Shown here: positions 6,552 to 40,645 of the stretch, piece by piece
Position numbering within the stretch: position 1 is the stretch's first letter
Layout: every line of letters begins with the position of its first letter
Sequence record: OQ870555.1
DNA: 64,000 nt
DNA from: Escherichia phage PECP14
Strand: one strand, 5' to 3'
Notes under the pieces: model-generated
Database searches by the model: none
Seen by the model: the letters and a program-made list of their open reading frames with translations, nothing else
What the model was told of the DNA's origin: nothing
Made by a program: the position numbers and the translations under genes

Positions 6552-8216
6552 ATGAATATTTCCGCAGAAAAACAAGCTCAAATTCTGAAAATGGCCGCAG
6601 ATTTTAACTTCTACGGTAAGCGTTTACGCGCTACTAAATTGGAAGTTTGCGACGATATTTCAAAAGCTGTTTATGATACGCCGAAACATTCGACCGCAAT
6701 TTGTGACTGGTTAGAAGCAAATAAGCCAGCGAAACCGAAAGCGGCAAAAGCTGAAAAGGCGATTAAAAATGATGATCGCCCCGAAGCGGCGGGAATTGTT
6801 TCTAGTACCGTTGAACAATGGGAAGTTAAATCCGGTCGCCGTTTTATTCTAACGTCGATTCAAAATAATACTTTCCCGCATAAAAACTTTTTAGCAAGTC
6901 TGGAAAAATTCGCTGAATATTGCGGCGCTGAATTGCTGATTAGTAAATTCATTTATAATAAAAATGGATTCCAGAACGGGGAAGGGGCAAACGGTATTAA
7001 ATACGATCCCGCATTTGATAAATATGTTTGTGATAAAAACGTATTTTTAAATAATCGCCGCTTTGCTTTCATGGCTGAAATTAACGTTTTACCAACGGCA
7101 GATTATCCGCTTTCAGGATTCGCAGAAACCGCCACGGCTTTAAATATCGAAGGTCTGGCAATTGGTCACGCTAAAATCACCGCTGAAAGTGTGCCAGCGT
7201 TAAAAGGTGAAGTCGTGCGCCGTATGTATTCAACCGGAACGGCGACACTAAAAAACTATATCCAGCAAAAGGCGGGACAAAAAGCCGAGGCTTTACATAA
7301 TTTCGGCGCTTTGCTGGTAGAGTTTGACGACGACGGAGAATTTTATTGCCGCCAGCTTGAAACAATGGACGAAAGCGGAATGTTCTACGATTTGAACGTG
7401 TGCGCTACCGCTACCGGATGTTATGAAACATCGGGCCATGTTCTAGGCTTGCAATATGGCGATATTCACGCCGAAAAACTAGATGATGATTGCGCCGTCG
7501 CTTCATGGGCTAGTGAAAACAGCTTGCTTGATATTCTTAAACCGAAATATCAATTTATTCATGATGTGCATGATTTTACATCCCGCAATCACCATAACCG
7601 CGCAAGTGGTGTATTCCTTGCTAAACAGTACGCCGCAGGACGTGATAAAGTTATTGATGATTTGATTGATACCGGTCGCGTGTTGGAATCTATGGAGCGT
7701 GATTTCTCTCAAACAATCATTGTGGAATCTAACCATGATTTAGCTCTTTCACGCTGGCTAGATGATCGTAACGCTAACATTAAGGACGATCCCGCAAACG
7801 CGGAACTGTATCACCGTCTAAACGCTGCGATTTACGCCGCTATTGCTGAAAAGGATGATACCTTTAACGTGCTAGATTACGCCTTGCGGAACGTCGCAGG
7901 ATGCGAATTTAACGCCATTTTCTTGACTACTGACCAGTCATTTAAAATCGCTGGCATTGAATGCGGCGTACATGGTCACAACGGCATTAACGGCAGTCGG
8001 GGCAATCCTAAGCAGTTTAAAAAGTTGGGACGCCTTAACACTGGTCATACTCATACGGCTAGCATTTACGGCGGCGTTTATACCGCTGGCGTGGCGGGGT
8101 CGCTTGATATGGGCTACAACGTGGGCGCGTCAAGCTGGACGCAAACGCATTTAATTACCTATGCAAACGGTCAAAGAACATTGATTGACTTTAAGAATGG
8201 TAAATTCTTTGCATAA
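6552..8216 (+). CDS. A1: A1-like pre-early protein, calcineurin-type metallophosphoesterase (554 aa)
   Basis: Phosphoesterase motifs GDIHAE and ESNHDL in the translation; size and position next to A2-like and dmp genes match my recollection of T5 A1 (about 556 aa). Confidence 0.8.
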   Translation: MNISAEKQAQILKMAADFNFYGKRLRATKLEVCDDISKAVYDTPKHSTAICDWLEANKPAKPKAAKAEKAIKNDDRPEAAGIVSSTVEQWEVKSGRRFILTSIQNNTFPHKNFLASLEKFAEYCGAELLISKFIYNKNGFQNGEGANGIKYDPAFDKYVCDKNVFLNNRRFAFMAEINVLPTADYPLSGFAETATALNIEGLAIGHAKITAESVPALKGEVVRRMYSTGTATLKNYIQQKAGQKAEALHNFGALLVEFDDDGEFYCRQLETMDESGMFYDLNVCATATGCYETSGHVLGLQYGDIHAEKLDDDCAVASWASENSLLDILKPKYQFIHDVHDFTSRNHHNRASGVFLAKQYAAGRDKVIDDLIDTGRVLESMERDFSQTIIVESNHDLALSRWLDDRNANIKDDPANAELYHRLNAAIYAAIAEKDDTFNVLDYALRNVAGCEFNAIFLTTDQSFKIAGIECGVHGHNGINGSRGNPKQFKKLGRLNTGHTHTASIYGGVYTAGVAGSLDMGYNVGASSWTQTHLITYANGQRTLIDFKNGKFFA

Positions 8217-9042: not shown

Positions 9043-9777
9043 ATGAATCAAGTCAACATGAATATTACCCGCACTTTCCCGCATATTTCCCGCGTTATGA
9101 TTTGGGATTTAGACGGAACGATTATAAATTCTTTCCATCGTGTAGCGCCTTGCTTTGACGATAACGGGAATTTAGATTTAGTTAAGTATTCCCGCGAAGC
9201 CTGCAAACATGAATTAATTATGCAGGATTCCTTATTACCATTGGTTGAATATATGCGCCAATGTATGAATGATCCCAATACCTTAAACCTTATTTGTACC
9301 GCTCGCTTAATGGGTAAATCTGATTATTATTTCTTGCGTAAACAAAGTCTAAGAGGGCGCGGAAATAGTAATATTCGCGTATTTTCCCGCGATACATTAC
9401 ATAAATACTTTGATGCAAATAAGGTTAGCGAAATATACCACAGTAAAGACGCTGTATATAAATCTTATTACTTTGAACTGTTTAAACAGCTATACCCTAA
9501 CGCTGATTTTACGATGATTGATGATCATAAAGGTGTATTATCGGCGGCGGCAAGTGCTGGATTTAAAACGCTGGACGCTCAAGCCGTTAATGATATCCTA
9601 TCAATCGGGGTAACATTGATCGGTGAAACCTTTATTGATGAATCGTTAGATGATGATAACGATTATCAATTCCTAGCCGAACGTTTAAAAATGTGTTGGG
9701 AAGGTATGACCGAGGAAGAACGCGCGGAATATAGTACCACACCGCAACAATTCATTGATAAATTAAAAGTTGCCTAA
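9043..9777 (+). CDS. dmp: 5'-deoxyribonucleotidase, HAD superfamily (244 aa)
   Basis: HAD motif I (IWDLDGTII) near the N-terminus; length matches my recollection of T5 Dmp. Confidence 0.75.
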   Translation: MNQVNMNITRTFPHISRVMIWDLDGTIINSFHRVAPCFDDNGNLDLVKYSREACKHELIMQDSLLPLVEYMRQCMNDPNTLNLICTARLMGKSDYYFLRKQSLRGRGNSNIRVFSRDTLHKYFDANKVSEIYHSKDAVYKSYYFELFKQLYPNADFTMIDDHKGVLSAAASAGFKTLDAQAVNDILSIGVTLIGETFIDESLDDDNDYQFLAERLKMCWEGMTEEERAEYSTTPQQFIDKLKVA

Positions 9778-9830: not shown

Positions 9831-9935
9831 GCTTGCTAAGTACCGGGGCGGTAATGAGACTCATTCTCATCTAGGGAACCTCTGGGCACACCTTCATGTG
9901 TAATCTTAGGAGATTTGGCAAAAGTCAAATTAGCG

Positions 9936-10151
9936 CTATTTACGGACTGACTGCTTGAGAATGGACTGCCATAGAGGGTCAGTCTTAACAAGATTATTGA
10001 TGTACTCAATAGCTTCATCAAATCTCATAAATCCTTCTGGAATTTCCGAAGACTTAGGAAGAACCTGTAGTAACTCCTGAGTGATGCCCATCTTTTCAAG
10101 TTCTTCTTGGGTTATCTCAAACTCCCCGAAAAACTTCCCGAATTCTTTCAT
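9936..10151 (-). CDS. hypothetical small soluble protein (about 71 aa)
   Basis: ATG at 10151 overlaps the TGA of the upstream gene (ATGA) and is preceded by AGGAGAAG; the longer listed ORF (to 10232) is probably an upstream extension. Confidence 0.4.
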   Translation of the reverse strand: MKEFGKFFGEFEITQEELEKMGITQELLQVLPKSSEIPEGFMRFDEAIEYINNLVKTDPLWQSILKQSVRK

Positions 10152-10393
10152 GAGCTTCTCCTGTCTACTGGCTTGTCTCCCGATTCTGACATACGAAATC
10201 TCCTCCGCGACGCCCGAGATCCATCCGACCACTCTCGCTCAAACTCCTCCCGTTTCTCCGCAAACCTCCGCTCCCTTTCCGAAAGCTCCCGCGATACTCC
10301 CGCAACATATTCACGATGCTTGTTAATAGCCCCGAGTGTTCCGAAGATTCCCGCAAGTACCCCGATAATGAAGATAGCTACAAAGCTAAACAT
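10148..10393 (-). CDS. small membrane protein (81 aa; N-terminal transmembrane helix, charged Arg/Glu-rich tail)
   Basis: N-terminus MFSFVAIFIIGVLAGIFGTLGA is hydrophobic; start overlaps the stop of the 34-aa ORF (TAATG). Confidence 0.45.
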   Translation of the reverse strand: MFSFVAIFIIGVLAGIFGTLGAINKHREYVAGVSRELSERERRFAEKREEFEREWSDGSRASRRRFRMSESGDKPVDRRSS

Positions 10394-10497
10394 TATTTAT
10401 CTCCCCGCAGCTTACGTTCGATACGAGCTAAATGGTTATCTAGAATGCACTGCCCGATAATTACCACAACTAGTAAAGCAATAATCACTACTTCCAT
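10393..10497 (-). CDS. very small transmembrane peptide (34 aa, MEVVIIALLVVVIIGQCILDNHLARIERKLRGDK)
   Basis: Hand-translated (below the 60-aa ORF cutoff); start and stop both overlap neighbouring genes by TAATG. Confidence 0.3.
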   Translation of the reverse strand: MEVVIIALLVVVIIGQCILDNHLARIERKLRGDK

Positions 10498-10682
10498 TAT
10501 AACCACCCCGCCATAGCTGCTAACCAAAAGAGTACAAAGATAAAGAATAATACAGTTCCGAATCCGAAACTATTTATCCAACTTTCGTATACTTCTCCGC
10601 GTCTGTTCTTTCTTCTGTTGTCGTTTGACATCTCTTTGCTTCTCCTGTAAGCCTGGTATTTGGAAGATTCTAGCAATTGCAC
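10497..10682 (-). CDS. small tail-anchored membrane protein (61 aa or shorter; C-terminal transmembrane helix)
   Basis: C-terminus FGFGTVLFFIFVLFWLAAMAGWL is hydrophobic; overlaps the upstream 104-aa ORF, so the exact start is uncertain. Confidence 0.4.
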   Translation of the reverse strand: MQLLESSKYQAYRRSKEMSNDNRRKNRRGEVYESWINSFGFGTVLFFIFVLFWLAAMAGWL

Positions 10683-10884
10683 GAACCATTACGACTGTCC
10701 CGATAAGATCCATTACTTCGTCGAAGCCGGATTCTTCTAGTAAGAAGGATGTTCCCATCACGTCTTCCATTGTATCTTCTATGACGTCTTGAATGATTTC
10801 GTTAATTGCATCATGTATTGCTTTAGTCCTGGGATCTATTTCAAAGTTAACAGGTTCCTGAAAGGACTTTTCTTCATCTTGCAT
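10570..10884 (-). CDS. hypothetical acidic protein (104 aa)
   Basis: ORF immediately downstream of llp on the same strand; acidic N-terminal half. Confidence 0.4.
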   Translation of the reverse strand: MQDEEKSFQEPVNFEIDPRTKAIHDAINEIIQDVIEDTMEDVMGTSFLLEESGFDEVMDLIGTVVMVRAIARIFQIPGLQEKQRDVKRQQKKEQTRRSIRKLDK

Positions 10885-10958: not shown

Positions 10959-11225
10959 TTACAAGTGACCAGATTGTTCTAGTTTAAATTTGCAATCGCC
11001 ATATTTGAGGTCAAACTGTGACAAATCCCACCACCCAAACTTAGTGCGTAACTGAGTTTTAGGGAATCGGTAGCCCACAGTACGTGCTTCTCGAATATCT
11101 AAAGCATAGTGTTCTTCACCAACATGACCATAAGACTTCACGTATGCCTTACAGAATGGCTCGGGAGCCGGTACACAACCCGTCAACACTGCTGCTGCAA
11201 CTACGATGGCTAGTAACTTTTTCAT
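10959..11225 (-). CDS. llp: Llp-like lipoprotein (receptor-blocking superinfection-exclusion protein, 88 aa)
   Basis: Signal peptide plus lipobox (AAAVLTGC); divergently placed next to the receptor-binding-protein gene, as I recall for T5 llp/oad. Confidence 0.75.
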   Translation of the reverse strand: MKKLLAIVVAAAVLTGCVPAPEPFCKAYVKSYGHVGEEHYALDIREARTVGYRFPKTQLRTKFGWWDLSQFDLKYGDCKFKLEQSGHL

Positions 11226-11254
11226 AATCGTTCCTCTGTTTAATTTATAAATAT

Positions 11255-11283
11255 ATTATAGCAAAATAGAGGGATCTAAGCAA
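11255..11283 (-). promoter_or_regulatory. Early sigma70-type promoter for llp (TTGCTT-N17-TATAAT)
   Basis: Minus-strand -35 TTGCTT at 11278-11283 and -10 TATAAT at 11255-11260 with a 17-nt spacer and AT-rich downstream region. Confidence 0.6.
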
Positions 11284-11308
11284 ATACATTTTTAAAGAAG
11301 GAGATTGT

Positions 11309-13090
11309 ATGAGTTTTTTCGCAGGAAAATTTAGTGATGGTAAAACTGTATTATCTCTAAACGCTGCTAATGGTGGTGATATAAATCAGCACTACTCTCC
11401 AAATACTAATAGTATCTTCCACTCAGATATGCCCTTCGTCCTAGTTGATGGGACTTATGAGGCTGCCCTAGGTGATGCAGGTAATGGGTACTTTGTTACT
11501 CAGATGCCTTGGGATATTATAAACATTAAATCCAATGATCCTGGTAGAGTTATATTAACTGCTATTGAGATAAATGGTACTCATAGGGGTTTCCTTAATG
11601 GTACACAATCTCAGGTTGGCCAGTTCTTATCATTCTTTGAAGACCAACCACGTGCTGGTGCTGAACTGGCTATAACATCTGCTTTTGCAATCGGTGATAG
11701 TTTAGCTCACGGTACTTATATATATAATGGTGGTCTTGGTCATGAGGAATCTATTGCTAGGCAAGGAACTGGTGGTACTTTACTACAATCTTCCGGTTTC
11801 CAGATCTTTAGACCTGGTGGTGTTTCCGCAGGTGAAGCTATTTCCAGAGCCTGGGGATTAATGGGCTTTCCTACTGGTGTTTCTACTGTTCCTATAGATG
11901 GTGGTAACGCCGATTATTGGGAACCTAACTGGCAAGCGCCTGTTGGTTCTGCTGGTAGAGGCCATGATTGGTTTTATGTTTGTAATTCTAATATTCGTGG
12001 CTTCGCAGGTAAGAAAGGTGTACTACCAGATAACGTAAACGTTCTTTACCAATCTCCTGCATATCCAGAAAAAATATATGTTTGTAGAGGTTCTACTTCT
12101 AATATGGCTGCTCAGTCTGCTAGAAAGGTATATGTACAGGACTGGTATAACGTTACGCCAACTAAGGTTATTTGGTATGTGCTAAATCTGCGCTATTCTA
12201 ATGGTAGTATGGGGGTTTCTGGTAATCCATTTACCGGTTCAGATATCCTAATATCTCCATCTAACTTTACTATTAAAGGTGTTAGCCTACCAAATACAGG
12301 CTATAAATTTATTAACCAGAATGCTTTCGGAAACTTAGGCTATCGCCCTGATATGGAGTATGTTGGTAATAACGCCGCGTATACCGGAGTTTTTGGTGAT
12401 AATACTGCACGATGTGAATTTATTGGCTCTAGTAACGGTGGGTTGTGGTCACCCGTTAACTATGGGGGTGCAGCTTCTCAAATTAGCCTATATAAATTTG
12501 GTGTAGGTAAACAATGGTATGTAGATACTAATACCAACTCCATTGGTAATGAACATGGACCTGTCTGGAGTCCTAGTACTGTACCCCTCAGGTTATTCCC
12601 AGGCAACGTTGCAAGTACTTATGTAGGGGATGATATAACTCCATCCTACCCTGGTGCTGGTGACTTCTACACACCTTTGGCCACAGTTTGGTTGGGATTA
12701 CCAAATGCTCACTCTACTGTTATATTAACTACTGAAGTTATTATGGGTAATCTTAATACTGCTGGAATGCCTGTGCGTACTTATGGTGGTAGTGCTTGGC
12801 AGGTACAAGGTAGACGTCAACAAAGTTATACAGCTGGTGATGGTGTATTCCATCAGATTCTTACTCTGCCACCTGGCTATCTAGTACCTTATCACAGTAC
12901 AACTTCCTATAGTTATACACAAACTTGGGCTAGTAGGCCAGATGAGTTTGCTTTCCGTAGGAACGGATATATTTATACTATTAAAAACCTTGGTAATGGC
13001 AACGTTGAGTTGGGTGTTATCATTCACGCTGCAGAAGCGGCAGCTGTTTTCTTGCCAAGACTACGTGTAACAGTTCAACGCCTAACCTAA
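11309..13090 (+). CDS. receptor-binding tail protein (pb5-like, 593 aa)
   Basis: Large Gly/Asn/Thr-rich protein divergent from llp and just upstream of the terminase genes; assigned by synteny. Receptor specificity cannot be read from sequence. Confidence 0.7.
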
Positions 13091-13100
13091 AGGAGGATAT

Positions 13101-13583
13101 ATGGCAAATGATGTATTAGTTCCCGATCTCATGTCTCCCGAAGGCATGGATGTTATTGAAGCCTATTTACAATGCGGTAGTGATGTTCCTGCCGCTGCTC
13201 GTAGTCTTGGGATGTCCGAGATTGCATTCCGTGATATAATGAATCGTGGGGAAGTTAAAAACTATCTTAACGATATCTTTATGGAAAGCGGCTTCCGTAA
13301 TCGTGACCGTTTGTTTGGGGTTCTTGATGAAGTTATCAAGCGTAAGCTAGAAGAACTTGAAGAAACTGGCATGGGTTCTGACCAGGATATCATGGATATT
13401 CTCTGGAAGGCGCACAAGATGAAAATGGAAGAAATGAAAATGATGGTAGAACTGGAGAAAGTGAAGGCAGCAGCCCGTACTCCGGCTAACCAGACTAACA
13501 TTCAGAATAATATTATTGCTGGAAGTGGTGACGAAAACTATATGAATCTTATTACCGCTCTAGCAGGAGGAGGTAAGAGATAA
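13101..13583 (+). CDS. terminase small subunit (160 aa)
   Basis: Immediately upstream of and overlapping the large terminase (ATGA); helix-turn-helix-like N-terminus and coiled-coil C-terminus. Confidence 0.6.
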
Positions 13584-14910: not shown

Positions 14911-14939
14911 ATGGGATACTACTCAGTTGGTATCCCATT
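14911..14939 (+). terminator. Hairpin ATGGGATAC-N10-GTATCCCAT after the large terminase gene
   Basis: Perfect 9-bp stem followed by TCCTGCATTTT. Confidence 0.45.
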
Positions 14940-15013
14940 CCTGCATTTTAAAATCCCCTTTACAAATTCGACATGATTATGTATACTATATTCATACAGT
15001 TGAGGAGAATACT

Positions 15014-15451
15014 GTGGCAGGAAATGTAAAATATAAACGTGATGCTATATCACTCATGCGAGACGGTATAAAAAGTCAATATAAAAAAGCCGATCGCTGC
15101 GAAATCTGTGGTTGTGGTGAAGAATTAGAGCTTCATCATTACCATACAGTGTCTCTACTAGTTAAAAAATTTGCTAAAGAACTCCAATTGGATTTCACTG
15201 ACGAAGAAACAGTCCTCTCAAATAGGACGGCATTCTATGAAAGATATAGGCATGAGCTAGTAGATGACACTGTTACCCTTTGTGTCCACCATCACCAACT
15301 ATTACATAAGGTGTACACTAAAGAACCTCCCCTTTTCTCTGCTAATAAGCAGAAGGTATGGGTTCTTAAACAAAAGGAAAAGCTACAGAATCCTCAAGAA
15401 AAGACACAAGTCAAGACTGAAATTAAATCAGGATTCGCAAGGTTCTTATAA
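15014..15451 (+). CDS. HNH-family endonuclease-like protein (about 145 aa; start uncertain)
   Basis: Cys/His-rich motifs CEICGCGEELELHHYH and CVHHHQLLH; GTG at 15014 is preceded by GAGGAG, whereas the listed ORF begins upstream at a TTG inside the hairpin. Confidence 0.55.
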   Translation: MAGNVKYKRDAISLMRDGIKSQYKKADRCEICGCGEELELHHYHTVSLLVKKFAKELQLDFTDEETVLSNRTAFYERYRHELVDDTVTLCVHHHQLLHKVYTKEPPLFSANKQKVWVLKQKEKLQNPQEKTQVKTEIKSGFARFL

Positions 15452-37076: not shown

Positions 37077-39061
37077 TGTCACGTAATTTAATGCCAAAAA
37101 GTGGGGCTATGGCCCCATATGTTGTAGTTAATAGAGACGCCGCAGTTGCCGGCGTTTTCTCTGTTGATGGAGAAGCTGGTGCTGTTGTGCTAACTTCCAA
37201 ATACCTGCAAATCTCTAAGTATACTACTGATAAAGCTGCTACTGATGCAGCTATCAATAATATTAACGAGTCGATTGGTAATATTAATACTGCATTAGGA
37301 GGTGTTAATACTACTTTAGATACTAAAGCTGCTAAAGGTGCCAATAACGATATTACAGAATTAAATGCACTTACTAAAGCTATTAAAATTTCTCAAGGTG
37401 GTACTGGGGCAGTAACGCTAGAAAATGCTAGAGCAAATCTACAAGTAGAACGCCTACGTCAGCAAGATAACGGAACTTTTATTACCTCTCCTGACGGTAA
37501 ATATTCTTTATTTATCTATAATAGTGGAGATTTTGGTTTAATTAATAGTGCTAGTACAGCAGTTAGTGCTATGAAAGTTGCTTTCGGTGGTACGGGTGGA
37601 ACTACTCCTAAAACTGCAAGAAAAGGCCTTAATGTCCCTGTTGGTGCCTTGGCTGAGATAGTACCTGATGGAGATAACGTATTGAACTATGTAGCTGTTG
37701 CTGGCCAGAGTGGGTATTATTCCTCTGGTGACGCAATAGTTAACGGGCCTCCCAAGCAAGAGGGTTGGTGGACGTATAACTTCCACTGTCATGGAGTAGA
37801 CATAAATGGTGTGGCACAATACGGTATACTTCGTGCAGTTGGATTGTCTGGTAGTTCCTGGGTTAACGTTCTTGATGGTACTGATAACTGGAGAGGATGG
37901 CAGGAACAATTTAATGTTCAAACTACTGTTCAAATCTCTAATGGGGGTACTGGTGCTCAGAGTGTAGGACAAGCAAGAAGTAATCTTGGAATTGGTGAAA
38001 CTGATATTCCTGTTTTTAGGGGTGTGAATCTTATTGAAAAGAATGGTGCTAATTCCGGCATTCTTTACCTAATAAACAAGAACGCAGAAGGTGTGCAACT
38101 TTCATATTCCAGGATCTACAATGAAATTCAAGGAGCGACCGCTAAAGCAACAATACAAGTAACAAGAGAAGGTGGTGATAATAACTATTATCAATTTGAC
38201 GAGCATGGTAATGCACTAAACTATAACTCTATAACAGTAGGTCGTGGTATTGGTAACGCTCTTGGTGATAATTCATTGGTTATTGGTGATACTGACACTG
38301 GCTTTAAATGGGGTGGTGATGGTATTATTCAAATTCATTGCAATGGTAGTAATATTGCATCTTATGAAGCGCACAATATGCATATTAATGGATTACTTAC
38401 AATATGGCCTACTGAGAATAACGCAAATGGGGTTAGAGTTTCAGGCGCTAGAACTGGTGGCGGTAATGCGTTAATTGGGGGTCAAATTGCTGGCGGCGGC
38501 TGGGATGGTTGGCGAGATCGCGCATCTGGTCTACTTGTTGAACTACCAGGTGATGATGCCGCATCAAACATATTCAAGGCTGTTAGGTGGGGCGGTGATT
38601 GGGCTGCTGGTCTTGATGTTGTAAGATATGGTGCTGGAGGTTGTGAGGCGCACCTTAATATAAGAGGTGCAACTTACACATTTAATGATGCTGGGTATGC
38701 GTCTGCTGTTCAGTGGGTTAACACATCCGATATTCGCCTGAAAGCAAATCTAAAAGAGATTGAAAGCGCTAAAGAAAAAGTGAAATCGATTAAGGGTTAT
38801 ACTTATTTTAAGCGTAATAATCTTGATGAAGATGAACACTCTATTTATTCTGAGGAAGCGGGTGTAATAGCTCAGGATGTGCAGGCTGTTTTGCCGGAGG
38901 CTGTTTATAAAATCTCTAACAGTGAGTATTTAGGTGTAAGTTATAGTGGTATTACCGCTCTCCTAGTTAACGCTTTTAATGAACTTAATGAAGTTGTTGA
39001 AAAGCAGCAGCAAGAAATTGATGAACTTAAGAAATTGGTAAAACAATTACTTGATAAGTAA
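37076..39061 (+). CDS. L-shaped tail fibre protein B with C-terminal intramolecular chaperone domain (661 aa)
   Basis: Gly-rich body; C-terminal SDIRLKANLKEIESAKEK...GVIAQDVQAVLPEAVYK chaperone-type domain paralogous to the C-terminus of the preceding gene. Confidence 0.75.
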   Translation: MSRNLMPKSGAMAPYVVVNRDAAVAGVFSVDGEAGAVVLTSKYLQISKYTTDKAATDAAINNINESIGNINTALGGVNTTLDTKAAKGANNDITELNALTKAIKISQGGTGAVTLENARANLQVERLRQQDNGTFITSPDGKYSLFIYNSGDFGLINSASTAVSAMKVAFGGTGGTTPKTARKGLNVPVGALAEIVPDGDNVLNYVAVAGQSGYYSSGDAIVNGPPKQEGWWTYNFHCHGVDINGVAQYGILRAVGLSGSSWVNVLDGTDNWRGWQEQFNVQTTVQISNGGTGAQSVGQARSNLGIGETDIPVFRGVNLIEKNGANSGILYLINKNAEGVQLSYSRIYNEIQGATAKATIQVTREGGDNNYYQFDEHGNALNYNSITVGRGIGNALGDNSLVIGDTDTGFKWGGDGIIQIHCNGSNIASYEAHNMHINGLLTIWPTENNANGVRVSGARTGGGNALIGGQIAGGGWDGWRDRASGLLVELPGDDAASNIFKAVRWGGDWAAGLDVVRYGAGGCEAHLNIRGATYTFNDAGYASAVQWVNTSDIRLKANLKEIESAKEKVKSIKGYTYFKRNNLDEDEHSIYSEEAGVIAQDVQAVLPEAVYKISNSEYLGVSYSGITALLVNAFNELNEVVEKQQQEIDELKKLVKQLLDK

Positions 39062-39068
39062 AAGAAAA

Positions 39069-39090
39069 CCCCAGTGGATTTCCACTGGGG
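39069..39090. terminator. Bidirectional terminator CCCCAGTGGA-TT-TCCACTGGGG between convergent late and early units
   Basis: Perfect 10-bp stem flanked by A-run upstream and TTTATTATTAT downstream. Confidence 0.8.
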
Positions 39091-39097
39091 TTTATTA

Positions 39098-39364
39098 TTA
39101 TCTGCTGCCAGCAATAACACCTAAGTTAAACACTGCTAACATAGCTCTAAGAGTAGGATCTTCTGAATTGCTACATAGTTCGACAAAAGCCTCTTCATCC
39201 CACTGGATTACATTGCCTTCACGATCTACCTTAAGAACTACGTTATTCACATCCGGTTCTGCTACCATAACATGATGATACGTAGCGGGATGTTCAAATG
39301 ATCCTATCATATTAGGATCAGCAAAATTATTTACTTCCTGAGCTTCCAAAGCCGCCTTCTCCAC
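39098..39364 (-). CDS. hypothetical protein (88 aa, GTG start)
   Basis: ORF with AGGAG upstream of the GTG; overlaps the dUTPase 3' end. Confidence 0.4.
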   Translation of the reverse strand: MEKAALEAQEVNNFADPNMIGSFEHPATYHHVMVAEPDVNNVVLKVDREGNVIQWDEEAFVELCSNSEDPTLRAMLAVFNLGVIAGSR

Positions 39365-39773
39365 GATCAGTCTCCTCTAGTTCGTCAACGATTTCAAAAT
39401 GATGAGTTGAGTAGTGTGGTAGTACTACTAGCTGACAAAGTCTCTCGAAATTCTCCAGAGTTTGCATTTCAGAACCGTAGTTAAACAGGTTCATCTTAAT
39501 AGTACCACGGTAGTCTGAGTCGATCACTCCTGCGGTATTTGCGATCATTAGTTTACGCTTACCTAAAGAGCTGCGAGGAACTACCAAACCAAACCAACCT
39601 CGCGGAATTTCCACCGCGACACCGGTGTCAATCATAAGGGATTTGCCTGGTGCAATAGCACGTAAATCTGCCGCAAGGTTAGTACCAAAGAATGCACGCA
39701 GATCCATACCTGCGGCATCATCAGAACCAATCCTCGGCATGCAATCTGGATGAGTTAGTTTAATTTTAATCAT
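39327..39773 (-). CDS. dut: dUTP diphosphatase (148 aa)
   Basis: dUTPase-type motifs AAGMDLRA, RSSLG and DSDYRG in the translation. Confidence 0.85.
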   Translation of the reverse strand: MIKIKLTHPDCMPRIGSDDAAGMDLRAFFGTNLAADLRAIAPGKSLMIDTGVAVEIPRGWFGLVVPRSSLGKRKLMIANTAGVIDSDYRGTIKMNLFNYGSEMQTLENFERLCQLVVLPHYSTHHFEIVDELEETDRGEGGFGSSGSK

Positions 39774-40645
39774 TGTCCTGCGATCTCCAAAATATCTTTC
39801 GTAAACTTATCTAATACGTCTTGACCCACAGCAGCAATAGCATCTACACAATAGGTCGGTAAATCAACCAGAATCAGATTTCGGAAAAGCAACTCCTCCG
39901 ATGCGTTCAGATTCTGTATATATTTCTGTTTCCCAGGCAGAGGGAGTTGATCAATAATATCCAGAACATTACCAAATTCACGGATAATATTATAACCACG
40001 TTTTGCACCGATGCCTTCAACACCACGGATGTTATCACCAAGATCTCCCATAATTGCTTTCAGAGAGATAAACTGATCTACATCGTCAACGTTATGATGT
40101 TCATACATATCACGAAGATGGTACTCACGACGTGTGGTGAAGGAGAAGCGAGAAACTCGATCAGTTAATAGAGTATCCCAGTCACCATCAGTAGAGATCA
40201 GCCAAACGTGATCATATAAATGACCAATGAGCTTAACAATATAAGCTGCCATATCGTCTGCTTCTACACCACGAATAGTGAAAGTTGGGAATGTGGTTTC
40301 ACACAACTCGAAAGCATCACGAAGATACTCGAAGAACTGTTCATCTAGTGCTTTCTCTTCTTCTGTACGTTGAGCATACTTTTCATCACGGTTGCCCTTA
40401 TAATCAGGAAGGTGCTCTAAACGGAATACAGACTTTCCTTTATCACCGAGAACGATTGTAGTTCTAGCTGAGTAGGATTTTGCGAGAGATTGAATTGTAG
40501 AAACATAACTTGAAGCGAAGGGTTTCTTACTATTATTATGTTTGAAGCGGAAGCCTAAGTTAGTTCCATCAACAATCATTAGGTTGCGACGAGAAGCCAG
40601 CTCAGCTTCTTCCTCTTCAATAAATTTTCCCCAGGATTTACTCAT
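39770..40645 (-). CDS. D15: flap endonuclease / 5'-3' exonuclease (D15-like, 291 aa)
   Basis: N-terminus MSKSWGKFIEEEEAE...MIVDGTNLGFRF and acidic metal-binding residues match my recollection of the T5 D15 exonuclease. Confidence 0.9.
   Translation of the reverse strand: MSKSWGKFIEEEEAELASRRNLMIVDGTNLGFRFKHNNSKKPFASSYVSTIQSLAKSYSARTTIVLGDKGKSVFRLEHLPDYKGNRDEKYAQRTEEEKALDEQFFEYLRDAFELCETTFPTFTIRGVEADDMAAYIVKLIGHLYDHVWLISTDGDWDTLLTDRVSRFSFTTRREYHLRDMYEHHNVDDVDQFISLKAIMGDLGDNIRGVEGIGAKRGYNIIREFGNVLDIIDQLPLPGKQKYIQNLNASEELLFRNLILVDLPTYCVDAIAAVGQDVLDKFTKDILEIAGQ

Follow-up and report, generated by a model that had tools for sequence, protein, structure and literature searches.

The divergent gene pair at positions 10,959 to 13,090 of the window (the whole 64,000-nucleotide stretch of Escherichia phage PECP14 DNA that was analysed) is very probably the host-recognition and lytic-conversion cassette of Epseptimavirus in its BtuB-specific form. 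One gene encodes a receptor-binding tail-tip protein (RBP) and the other a small lipoprotein precursor, Llp. The cassette is already known: it is carried by hundreds of sequenced phages, copies 98–100% identical are annotated in many genomes, and the class has been described since BF23. The original prediction, that a gene with a lipobox and a gene for a large tail protein are transcribed divergently here, was borne out by the open reading frames, which lie at the positions given below with 83 bp between them.

10959..11225, minus strand: llp, lipoprotein precursor of 88 aa, ATG start (from the list of open reading frames).
11226..11308: divergent spacer of 83 bp containing both ribosome-binding sites and the likely promoters.
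11309..13090, plus strand: RBP gene, receptor-binding tail-tip protein of 593 aa, ATG start (from the list of open reading frames).
13101..13583, plus strand: terS, small terminase subunit (phrog_3802, E 2.2e-90).

Downstream of the RBP gene the order is terS, terL, a small endonuclease-like open reading frame and the portal gene. The order llp on the minus strand, RBP on the plus strand, terS and terL is identical in T5, BF23, JNwz02 and BSP22A, so that the pair matches these phages in both arrangement and position. The two genes are a T5-type llp/oad module, divergent and located upstream of terS and terL. The first 25 kb of the window shows 96–97% nucleotide identity to the Salmonella phages Stitch (97%), JNwz02 (96%), SIY1lw and OSY-STA and to Escherichia phage EscoHU1. 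Judged by these identities, the window is from a T5-like siphovirus of the genus Epseptimavirus (Markadamsvirinae, Demerecviridae). The corresponding genes in T5, BF23, JNwz02 and BSP22A are annotated as ‘receptor binding protein’ and ‘receptor blocking protein’.

The RBP was examined against profile, sequence and structure collections. It matches phrog_4815, ‘receptor binding tail protein’, over residues 1–593 with an E value of 4.8e-284, and PF26860 is present in the precomputed annotations of all 39 of its 39 database homologues. A local Pfam-A scan of both proteins gave nothing beyond sub-threshold noise (KOW6, LPAM_1 and Phage_lipoprotein). Among PDB sequences the RBP matched the T5 pb5 chains 8b14_B and 8a8c_B, both from FhuA-bound structures, at E 1e-46. 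An AF2 model built from 36 homologues had a pLDDT of 91 and a pTM of 0.90, and when this model was compared with the PDB using Foldseek the same two chains were the sole significant matches (8b14_B, E 5e-33, TM 0.63/0.68; 8a8c_B, E 2e-29; TM range 0.60–0.68), the third match having an E value of 2e-3. The sequence matches and the model together argue that the RBP is a true, full-length homologue of T5 pb5 (the pb5/Oad/Hrs family) with the elongated, mostly-beta pb5 fold.

Alignment with pb5-type proteins of known receptor, which had been proposed as a check, found no full-length closeness to T5 pb5; the identity was 28% in a local tblastn alignment and 33.7% in a global one. The conserved regions are the N-terminal ∼60 residues (MSFFAGK...FHSDM), a central block at ∼300–360 and the C-terminal ...QRLT, and of these both termini, MSFFAGK... 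and ...QRLT, are kept across all receptor classes. Residues 90–300 and 440–540 are only 17–30% identical to T5 pb5 and contain many indels. Comparison with the RBP of phage H8 gave 28% local and 32.3% global identity, while the N-terminal 60 residues were 63–83% identical between the two proteins; this region is presumably the tail-attachment part. The T5 protein (T5.157) is 640 aa long, which is the approximate length given in the original prediction, as against 593 aa for the RBP of the window. The prediction had taken the shorter length as a sign that the receptor may differ from that of T5. A differing receptor is indicated by the 28–34% identity to pb5 set against the 98.1% identity to the RBP of JNwz02, but length had no part in showing this: the length difference is uninformative alone, and it is the sequence class that predicts the receptor.

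The identities of the RBP to its closer relatives were as follows.

SUT_E1620: 99.7%.
BSP22A: 98.7% (8 substitutions).
EscoHU1: 98.5%.
JNwz02: 98.1% (11 substitutions).
EPS7: ∼98% (the deposited sequence contains frameshifts).
BF23 Hrs: 76.7%.
Yersinia phage phiR2-01: 60%.

We take BSP22A to be a BtuB phage as well, a point that was given no weight as evidence. The literature consulted on BSP22A gives only a target differing from those of its cocktail partners. For other phages in the list the receptor has been reported. Deletion of btuB in Salmonella abolishes plaque formation by JNwz02 and lowers its adsorption from 91% to 8%, and btuB mutations were found in 97.5% of co-evolved resistant clones (PMC11014889). 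EPS7 is a reported BtuB phage (Hong 2008, as cited in PMC8594841 and PMC11014889), EscoHU1 is stated to use BtuB (PMC12887010) and the reported BtuB phages also include BF23, SPC35, DT57C, DT571/2 and phiR2-01, with BF23 Hrs being the classical BtuB RBP. The BASEL study divided the RBPs of T5-like phages into three clusters, for BtuB, FepA and FhuA, such that the cluster predicts the receptor, and noted that among T5-like phages ‘the vast majority target BtuB’ (PMC8594841). Genome-wide screens described in a 2026 preprint found 23 BtuB-dependent Demerecviridae whose RBP was ‘approximately 30%’ identical to pb5, and the 28–34% found for the RBP of the window agrees with this figure.

On sequence the RBP is placed in the BtuB cluster, with BF23 Hrs, EPS7, DT57C, phiR2-01 and JNwz02, separate from the clusters for FhuA and FepA. 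Because the RBP is ∼98% identical to those of phages assayed for BtuB dependence, the receptor of this phage is almost certainly BtuB. The other two receptor classes were rejected on identity. An RBP that binds FhuA like T5 pb5, together with a lipoprotein that blocks FhuA, is a reading to which we attach next to no probability: it would account for the RBP being a true pb5 homologue that has kept the fold and the termini, and for an Llp in the same PHROG as T5 Llp, but it conflicts with the low identity to T5 pb5, above all in the two divergent regions, with the near-identity of the RBP to the RBPs of btuB-dependent phages, with the ∼20% identity of Llp to T5 Llp and with the failure of the DT57C/BF23-type Llp to protect against T5. 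A pb5 in the strict sense, that is a FhuA binder, was rejected as a candidate on the local and global identities and on alignment windows covering residues 91–300, which stood at 17–30% with indels. Binding to FepA, as by phage H8 or S124, is scarcely credible either, since the whole-protein identity to the H8 RBP is just 28–32%, the FepA and BtuB clusters are distinct (PMC8594841) and a homologous llp is absent from the H8 locus examined; the likeness to H8 that might speak for FepA lies in the N-terminal 60 residues.

With BtuB preferred as the receptor, the second gene of the pair can be considered. Llp opens with the sequence MKKLLAIVVAAAVLTGC, a textbook lipoprotein signal peptide, and its N-terminus reads MKKLLAIVVAAAVLTG followed by C, giving a canonical L-T-G-C lipobox with the cysteine at position 17. 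The Pfam family LPAM_1 matches residues 1–17 at a sub-threshold score. The predicted signal peptide comprises residues 1–16, with Cys17 as the predicted site of lipidation, which would leave a mature protein of 72 aa, compared with 62 aa for T5 Llp. Sorting of lipoproteins is governed by the Lol +2 rule and, as the +2 residue of Llp is Val, sorting to the outer membrane is expected. Two further cysteines, Cys25 and Cys78, at positions 9 and 62 of the mature protein, do not vary across 16 family members. The mature T5 Llp has a Cys11–Cys58 disulphide (PMC9586334), and the Cys25/Cys78 pair is placed like it.

The identities of Llp to other Llp proteins were as follows.

Salmonella phage SB13: 100%.
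JNwz02, BSP22A, EPS7 and BASEL phage GreteKellenberger: 98.9%.
BF23 Llp: 67%, over the full length.
T5 Llp (77 aa): ∼20%.

Llp forms a narrow family, which falls into 15 clusters at 90% identity and a single one at 50%, and across which the C-terminal half, TKFGWWDLSQFDLKYGDCKFKLEQS, is nearly invariant. An exhaustive profile search with Llp returned, besides the single 50%-identity cluster, one distant lipoprotein of 86 aa. Two word-indexed searches and an exhaustive search of representatives with the Llp profile brought up neither T5 Llp nor Cor, a phmmer search of PDB sequences with Llp gave no match and a Foldseek search with Llp did not retrieve T5 Llp. When the Llp family profile was aligned to T5 Llp using hhalign, the alignment was confined to residues 1–29, that is the signal peptide and the first Cys. 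The profile of phrog_1119, ‘Cor superinfection exclusion protein’, was matched by Llp of the window (9.6e-23), by its mature part (1.7e-13) and by T5 Llp (1.1e-19), although this PHROG may contain both subtypes. The best structural match of Llp was T5 Llp, and comparison with the T5 Llp fold found agreement. T5 Llp and BF23 Llp have been called non-homologous in the literature (including PMC4728585). Llp probably shares the T5 Llp fold, and a shared origin of the mature domains is plausible but unproven.

What is known of blocking by this type of Llp comes from BF23 and DT57C. BF23 Llp blocks BtuB (PMC4728585). The Llp of DT57C is the same as that of BF23 bar one residue and, when cloned, it reduced the plating of BF23 and DT57C by >100-fold and left T5 unaffected (PMC4728585). 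It might be argued that the RBP binds BtuB but that the lipoprotein is some other membrane-associated early protein, or has another target, and does not block the receptor. The blocking of BtuB by the EPS7-type allele is, after all, extrapolated from the 67%-identical BF23/DT57C allele, homology of the mature domain to T5 Llp is not demonstrable by sequence and the authors of the phiR2-01 work described the role of their Llp homologue as unverified. We consider this improbable given that the 67% identity to the BtuB-blocking BF23 Llp extends over the full length with an almost invariant C-terminal half, that llp occurs strictly together with BtuB-type RBPs and that the best structural match is T5 Llp. 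By analogy we conclude that Llp would work like T5 Llp, in this case as a blocker of BtuB.

The linkage between the two genes was measured across a phage collection using tblastn, which found the RBP in 534 records and Llp in 397. An RBP at least 60% identical to that of the window was present in ∼398 phage records, against the 397 with this type of Llp. In the 136 records where the RBP was <60% identical (the T5/FhuA type, the H8/FepA type and a 657-aa Klebsiella type) none was among the Llp matches. These numbers support the view that the Llp type travels with the receptor type of the RBP, and they agree with the earlier suggestion that Llp had co-evolved with the RBP. Together with the PHROG matches of both proteins, the tblastn counts place the pair well outside chance.

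Within the BtuB class the matching of RBP and Llp is looser. Llp occurs as two discrete alleles, the EPS7 type and the BF23 type, which are ∼67% identical to each other, with ∼191 records at ≥95% identity and ∼204 at 60–80%, whereas the RBP identities run almost without a break from 65% to 99%. In Kenya-K45 and TrudiGerster, for example, an RBP of 81–83% identity is paired with an Llp of 66–67%. A recombination point between hrs and llp has been proposed for DT57C (PMC4728585) and the loose pairing fits this proposal. The two Llp alleles alongside a near-continuum of RBPs suggest that Llp may recognise a part of BtuB that is conserved on its periplasmic side, with the RBP diversifying in response to the variable extracellular loops.

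The way in which the cassette would act can be outlined as follows. The RBP would occupy, as a single copy, the tip of the phage's straight central fibre, where it would bind irreversibly to the extracellular face of BtuB, the TonB-dependent vitamin B12 transporter, leading to DNA ejection. After export and lipidation at Cys17, Llp would be sorted to the outer membrane, on its inner leaflet, and by binding BtuB it would make the transporter unusable as a receptor. Superinfecting BtuB phages would then be excluded and progeny would not be wasted on cell debris. T5 Llp, an outer-membrane lipoprotein on the periplasmic side, binds the plug of FhuA in a non-native state and causes the extracellular loops EL7 and EL8 to fold inward over the pb5 site, a process termed ‘reverse allostery’, and the authors argue that this mechanism could extend to other TonB-dependent transporters (PMC9586334). 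By analogy with T5 Llp and FhuA, Llp may act on BtuB at its plug and periplasmic face, closing the extracellular side by reverse allostery. As BtuB is a TonB-dependent transporter and the Val at +2 predicts that Llp is in the outer membrane, such periplasmic jamming of BtuB is the most likely mode of action. The case is evenly balanced for a wider proposal, which starts from Llp of the window having the fold and Cys pair of T5 Llp with hardly any sequence similarity left: that reverse allostery, set off by a lipoprotein that jams the plug on its periplasmic side, is the ancestral, general means by which T5-like phages shut any TonB-dependent receptor, Llp and RBP reading the conserved and variable surfaces of BtuB respectively.

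The modules of EPS7, JNwz02, Stitch, BSP22A and EscoHU1 consist of essentially identical genes (RBP 98–99.7% and 593 aa; Llp 98.9–100% and 88 aa), with the orientation, the spacer and the position upstream of terS as in the window. The RBP differs by 11 substitutions from that of JNwz02 and by 8 from that of BSP22A, and the single substitution in Llp is in the signal peptide; a functional difference from the EPS7/JNwz02/BSP22A-type module is not expected. The prototype, the Hrs and Llp module of BF23, is of the same family with the same architecture and receptor and a conserved spacer, but it is a distinct allele class in which the divergence of the RBP is concentrated at residues 150–270 (60–73% identity) and that of Llp in the N-terminal half of the mature protein. 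The pb5 (Oad) and Llp proteins of T5, for which complexes with FhuA have been solved (8a8c, 8b14, 8a60 and 7qjf), represent the FhuA receptor class, with a pb5 of 640 aa and an Llp of 77 aa whose sequence homology to the Llp of the window is undemonstrable beyond the N-terminus. More distant are the Cor lipoproteins of T1/phi80-like phages, which are also small outer-membrane lipoproteins encoded beside an RBP gene and inactivate a TonB-dependent transporter. Cor proteins target FhuA, belong to another phage family and are likened to Llp through phrog_1119, which they have in common; T5 Llp is itself reported to be ∼20% identical to Cor, disulphide included (PMC9586334).

In terms of annotation, BtuB can be called as the terminal receptor of such a phage from sequence alone, which is of use in the design of phage cocktails and in the prediction of cross-resistance, as btuB mutants will resist. 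The cassette also touches on a question wider than this window, namely the structural basis of BtuB recognition and blocking; no structure of BtuB with an RBP or with Llp was found in the copy of the PDB searched.

The spacer between the two genes was examined for signals controlling their expression. The Shine-Dalgarno sequence for the RBP gene is AAGGAG at 11298..11303 and that for llp is GAGGA, the reverse complement of 11232..11236. The T5 and BF23 records carry annotated divergent promoters in the corresponding spacer. An alignment of the spacers of the window, JNwz02, BF23 and T5 gave a mean column identity of 86%, and BF23 and T5 share with the window the conserved blocks TAATTTAT, CTATTATA and TAAGCAA.TA.ATTTTT. 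The spacer is thus conserved though the flanking open reading frames of T5 are only ∼20–34% identical to those of the window. Reading by eye, in combination with this conservation, gave one further feature.

11255..11283, minus strand: candidate llp promoter of the T5 early type.

The candidate has a -35 hexamer TTGCTT (the reverse complement of 11278..11283), followed by a spacer of 17 nt and an extended -10 element TGCTATAAT (the reverse complement of 11255..11263). A scan for generic sigma-70 sites turned up no promoter between the two genes, the number of sites being no more than in shuffled sequence; the scanner missed this candidate because its -35 has only 3 of the 6 consensus bases. 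Both hexamers fall within invariant columns of the alignment of the window, JNwz02, BF23 and T5, and 11255..11283 is probably the llp promoter. It resembles strong T5 early promoters such as PN25. Expression of llp would then be early, and that of the RBP gene late.

The 83-bp spacer between the divergent llp and receptor-binding protein (RBP) genes, window 11226..11308, was aligned with its counterpart in T5. The blocks TAATTTAT, CTATTATA and TAAGCAA are shared. The spacer is thus kept between the two phages, yet the open reading frames (ORFs) on either side of it are only 20-34% identical. Judged from these sequences, the divergent promoter region seems to have been fixed while the llp/RBP cassette around it was exchanged or diverged.

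The genes downstream of llp and on the same strand include the following.

Window 10570..10884, minus strand: 104-aa acidic ORF matching phrog_16810 (unknown function), E 1e-67
Window 10393..10527, minus strand: small ORF, 44 aa
Window 10148..10393, minus strand: small ORF, 81 aa

The acidic ORF lies directly downstream of llp and its counterparts are kept in JNwz02, EPS7 and H8. The ORFs annotated at the equivalent position in T5, T5.159 to T5.162, are all small and have a single transmembrane segment. The two small ORFs are examples from a series with hydrophobic segments, co-oriented with llp, that occupies window 9836..10530 on the minus strand; these small ORFs are similar to the T5.159-T5.162 proteins.

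The FepA-specific phage H8 was examined for an equivalent module using its draft record.

AC171169 44702..46612: FepA-type RBP of H8, 637 aa

No adjoining lipobox ORF of at least 40 aa was found in this gene together with about 3 kb on each side of it. Next after the RBP gene of H8, in divergent orientation, comes a homologue, 108 aa long, of the acidic ORF. The FepA-type module of H8 therefore seems to be without an llp gene, as far as the draft record represents it. An exhaustive search gave a sole distant relative of the Llp family (E 1e-5), the 86-aa lipobox protein P0055, in which the cysteine spacing (C15, C24 and C78) matches that of the family. P0055 may be an Llp for a further receptor class.

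Precomputed Pfam annotation places PF26860 on every homologue of the RBP. A local hmmscan against Pfam-A gave no PF26860 match for the window RBP, the model seemingly being absent from the library scanned. The EPS7 RefSeq record, NC_010583, has no CDS annotated for the RBP; tblastn recovered the protein at 38150..39931 as three pieces in different frames with 95-98% identity, indicating that the deposited sequence has frameshifts. The RBP of KKP 3953 is likewise in three parts, each labelled as a hypothetical protein.

Among the matches in the phage collection, records that carry the name of a Listeria, Campylobacter or Klebsiella phage also hold this Salmonella/E. coli phage module in near-identical form, two of them being as follows.

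Listeria phage LM 4-14-1: near-identical module copy, 2.6 kb
Klebsiella phage 150049: near-identical module copy, 96% identity over 25 kb

It looks as though the hosts of these records were mis-assigned or the contigs are contaminants.

Three further ORFs of the window are listed here.

Window 14927..15451, plus strand: ORF between terL and portal, 174 aa with a TTG start in the ORF listing
Window 6552..8216: A1-like ORF, 554 aa
Window 9043..9777: deoxynucleotidase/dmp-like ORF

Since the homologue of the first in JNwz02 and BF23 is annotated at a shorter 145 aa, as a 'nicking site-specific endonuclease', its true start is probably an internal ATG. No tRNA genes were found in the window. The pre-early region, to which the A1-like and deoxynucleotidase/dmp-like ORFs belong, occupies window 1 to about 9900; its counterpart in the T5, BF23 and Stitch genomes sits within the long terminal repeat.
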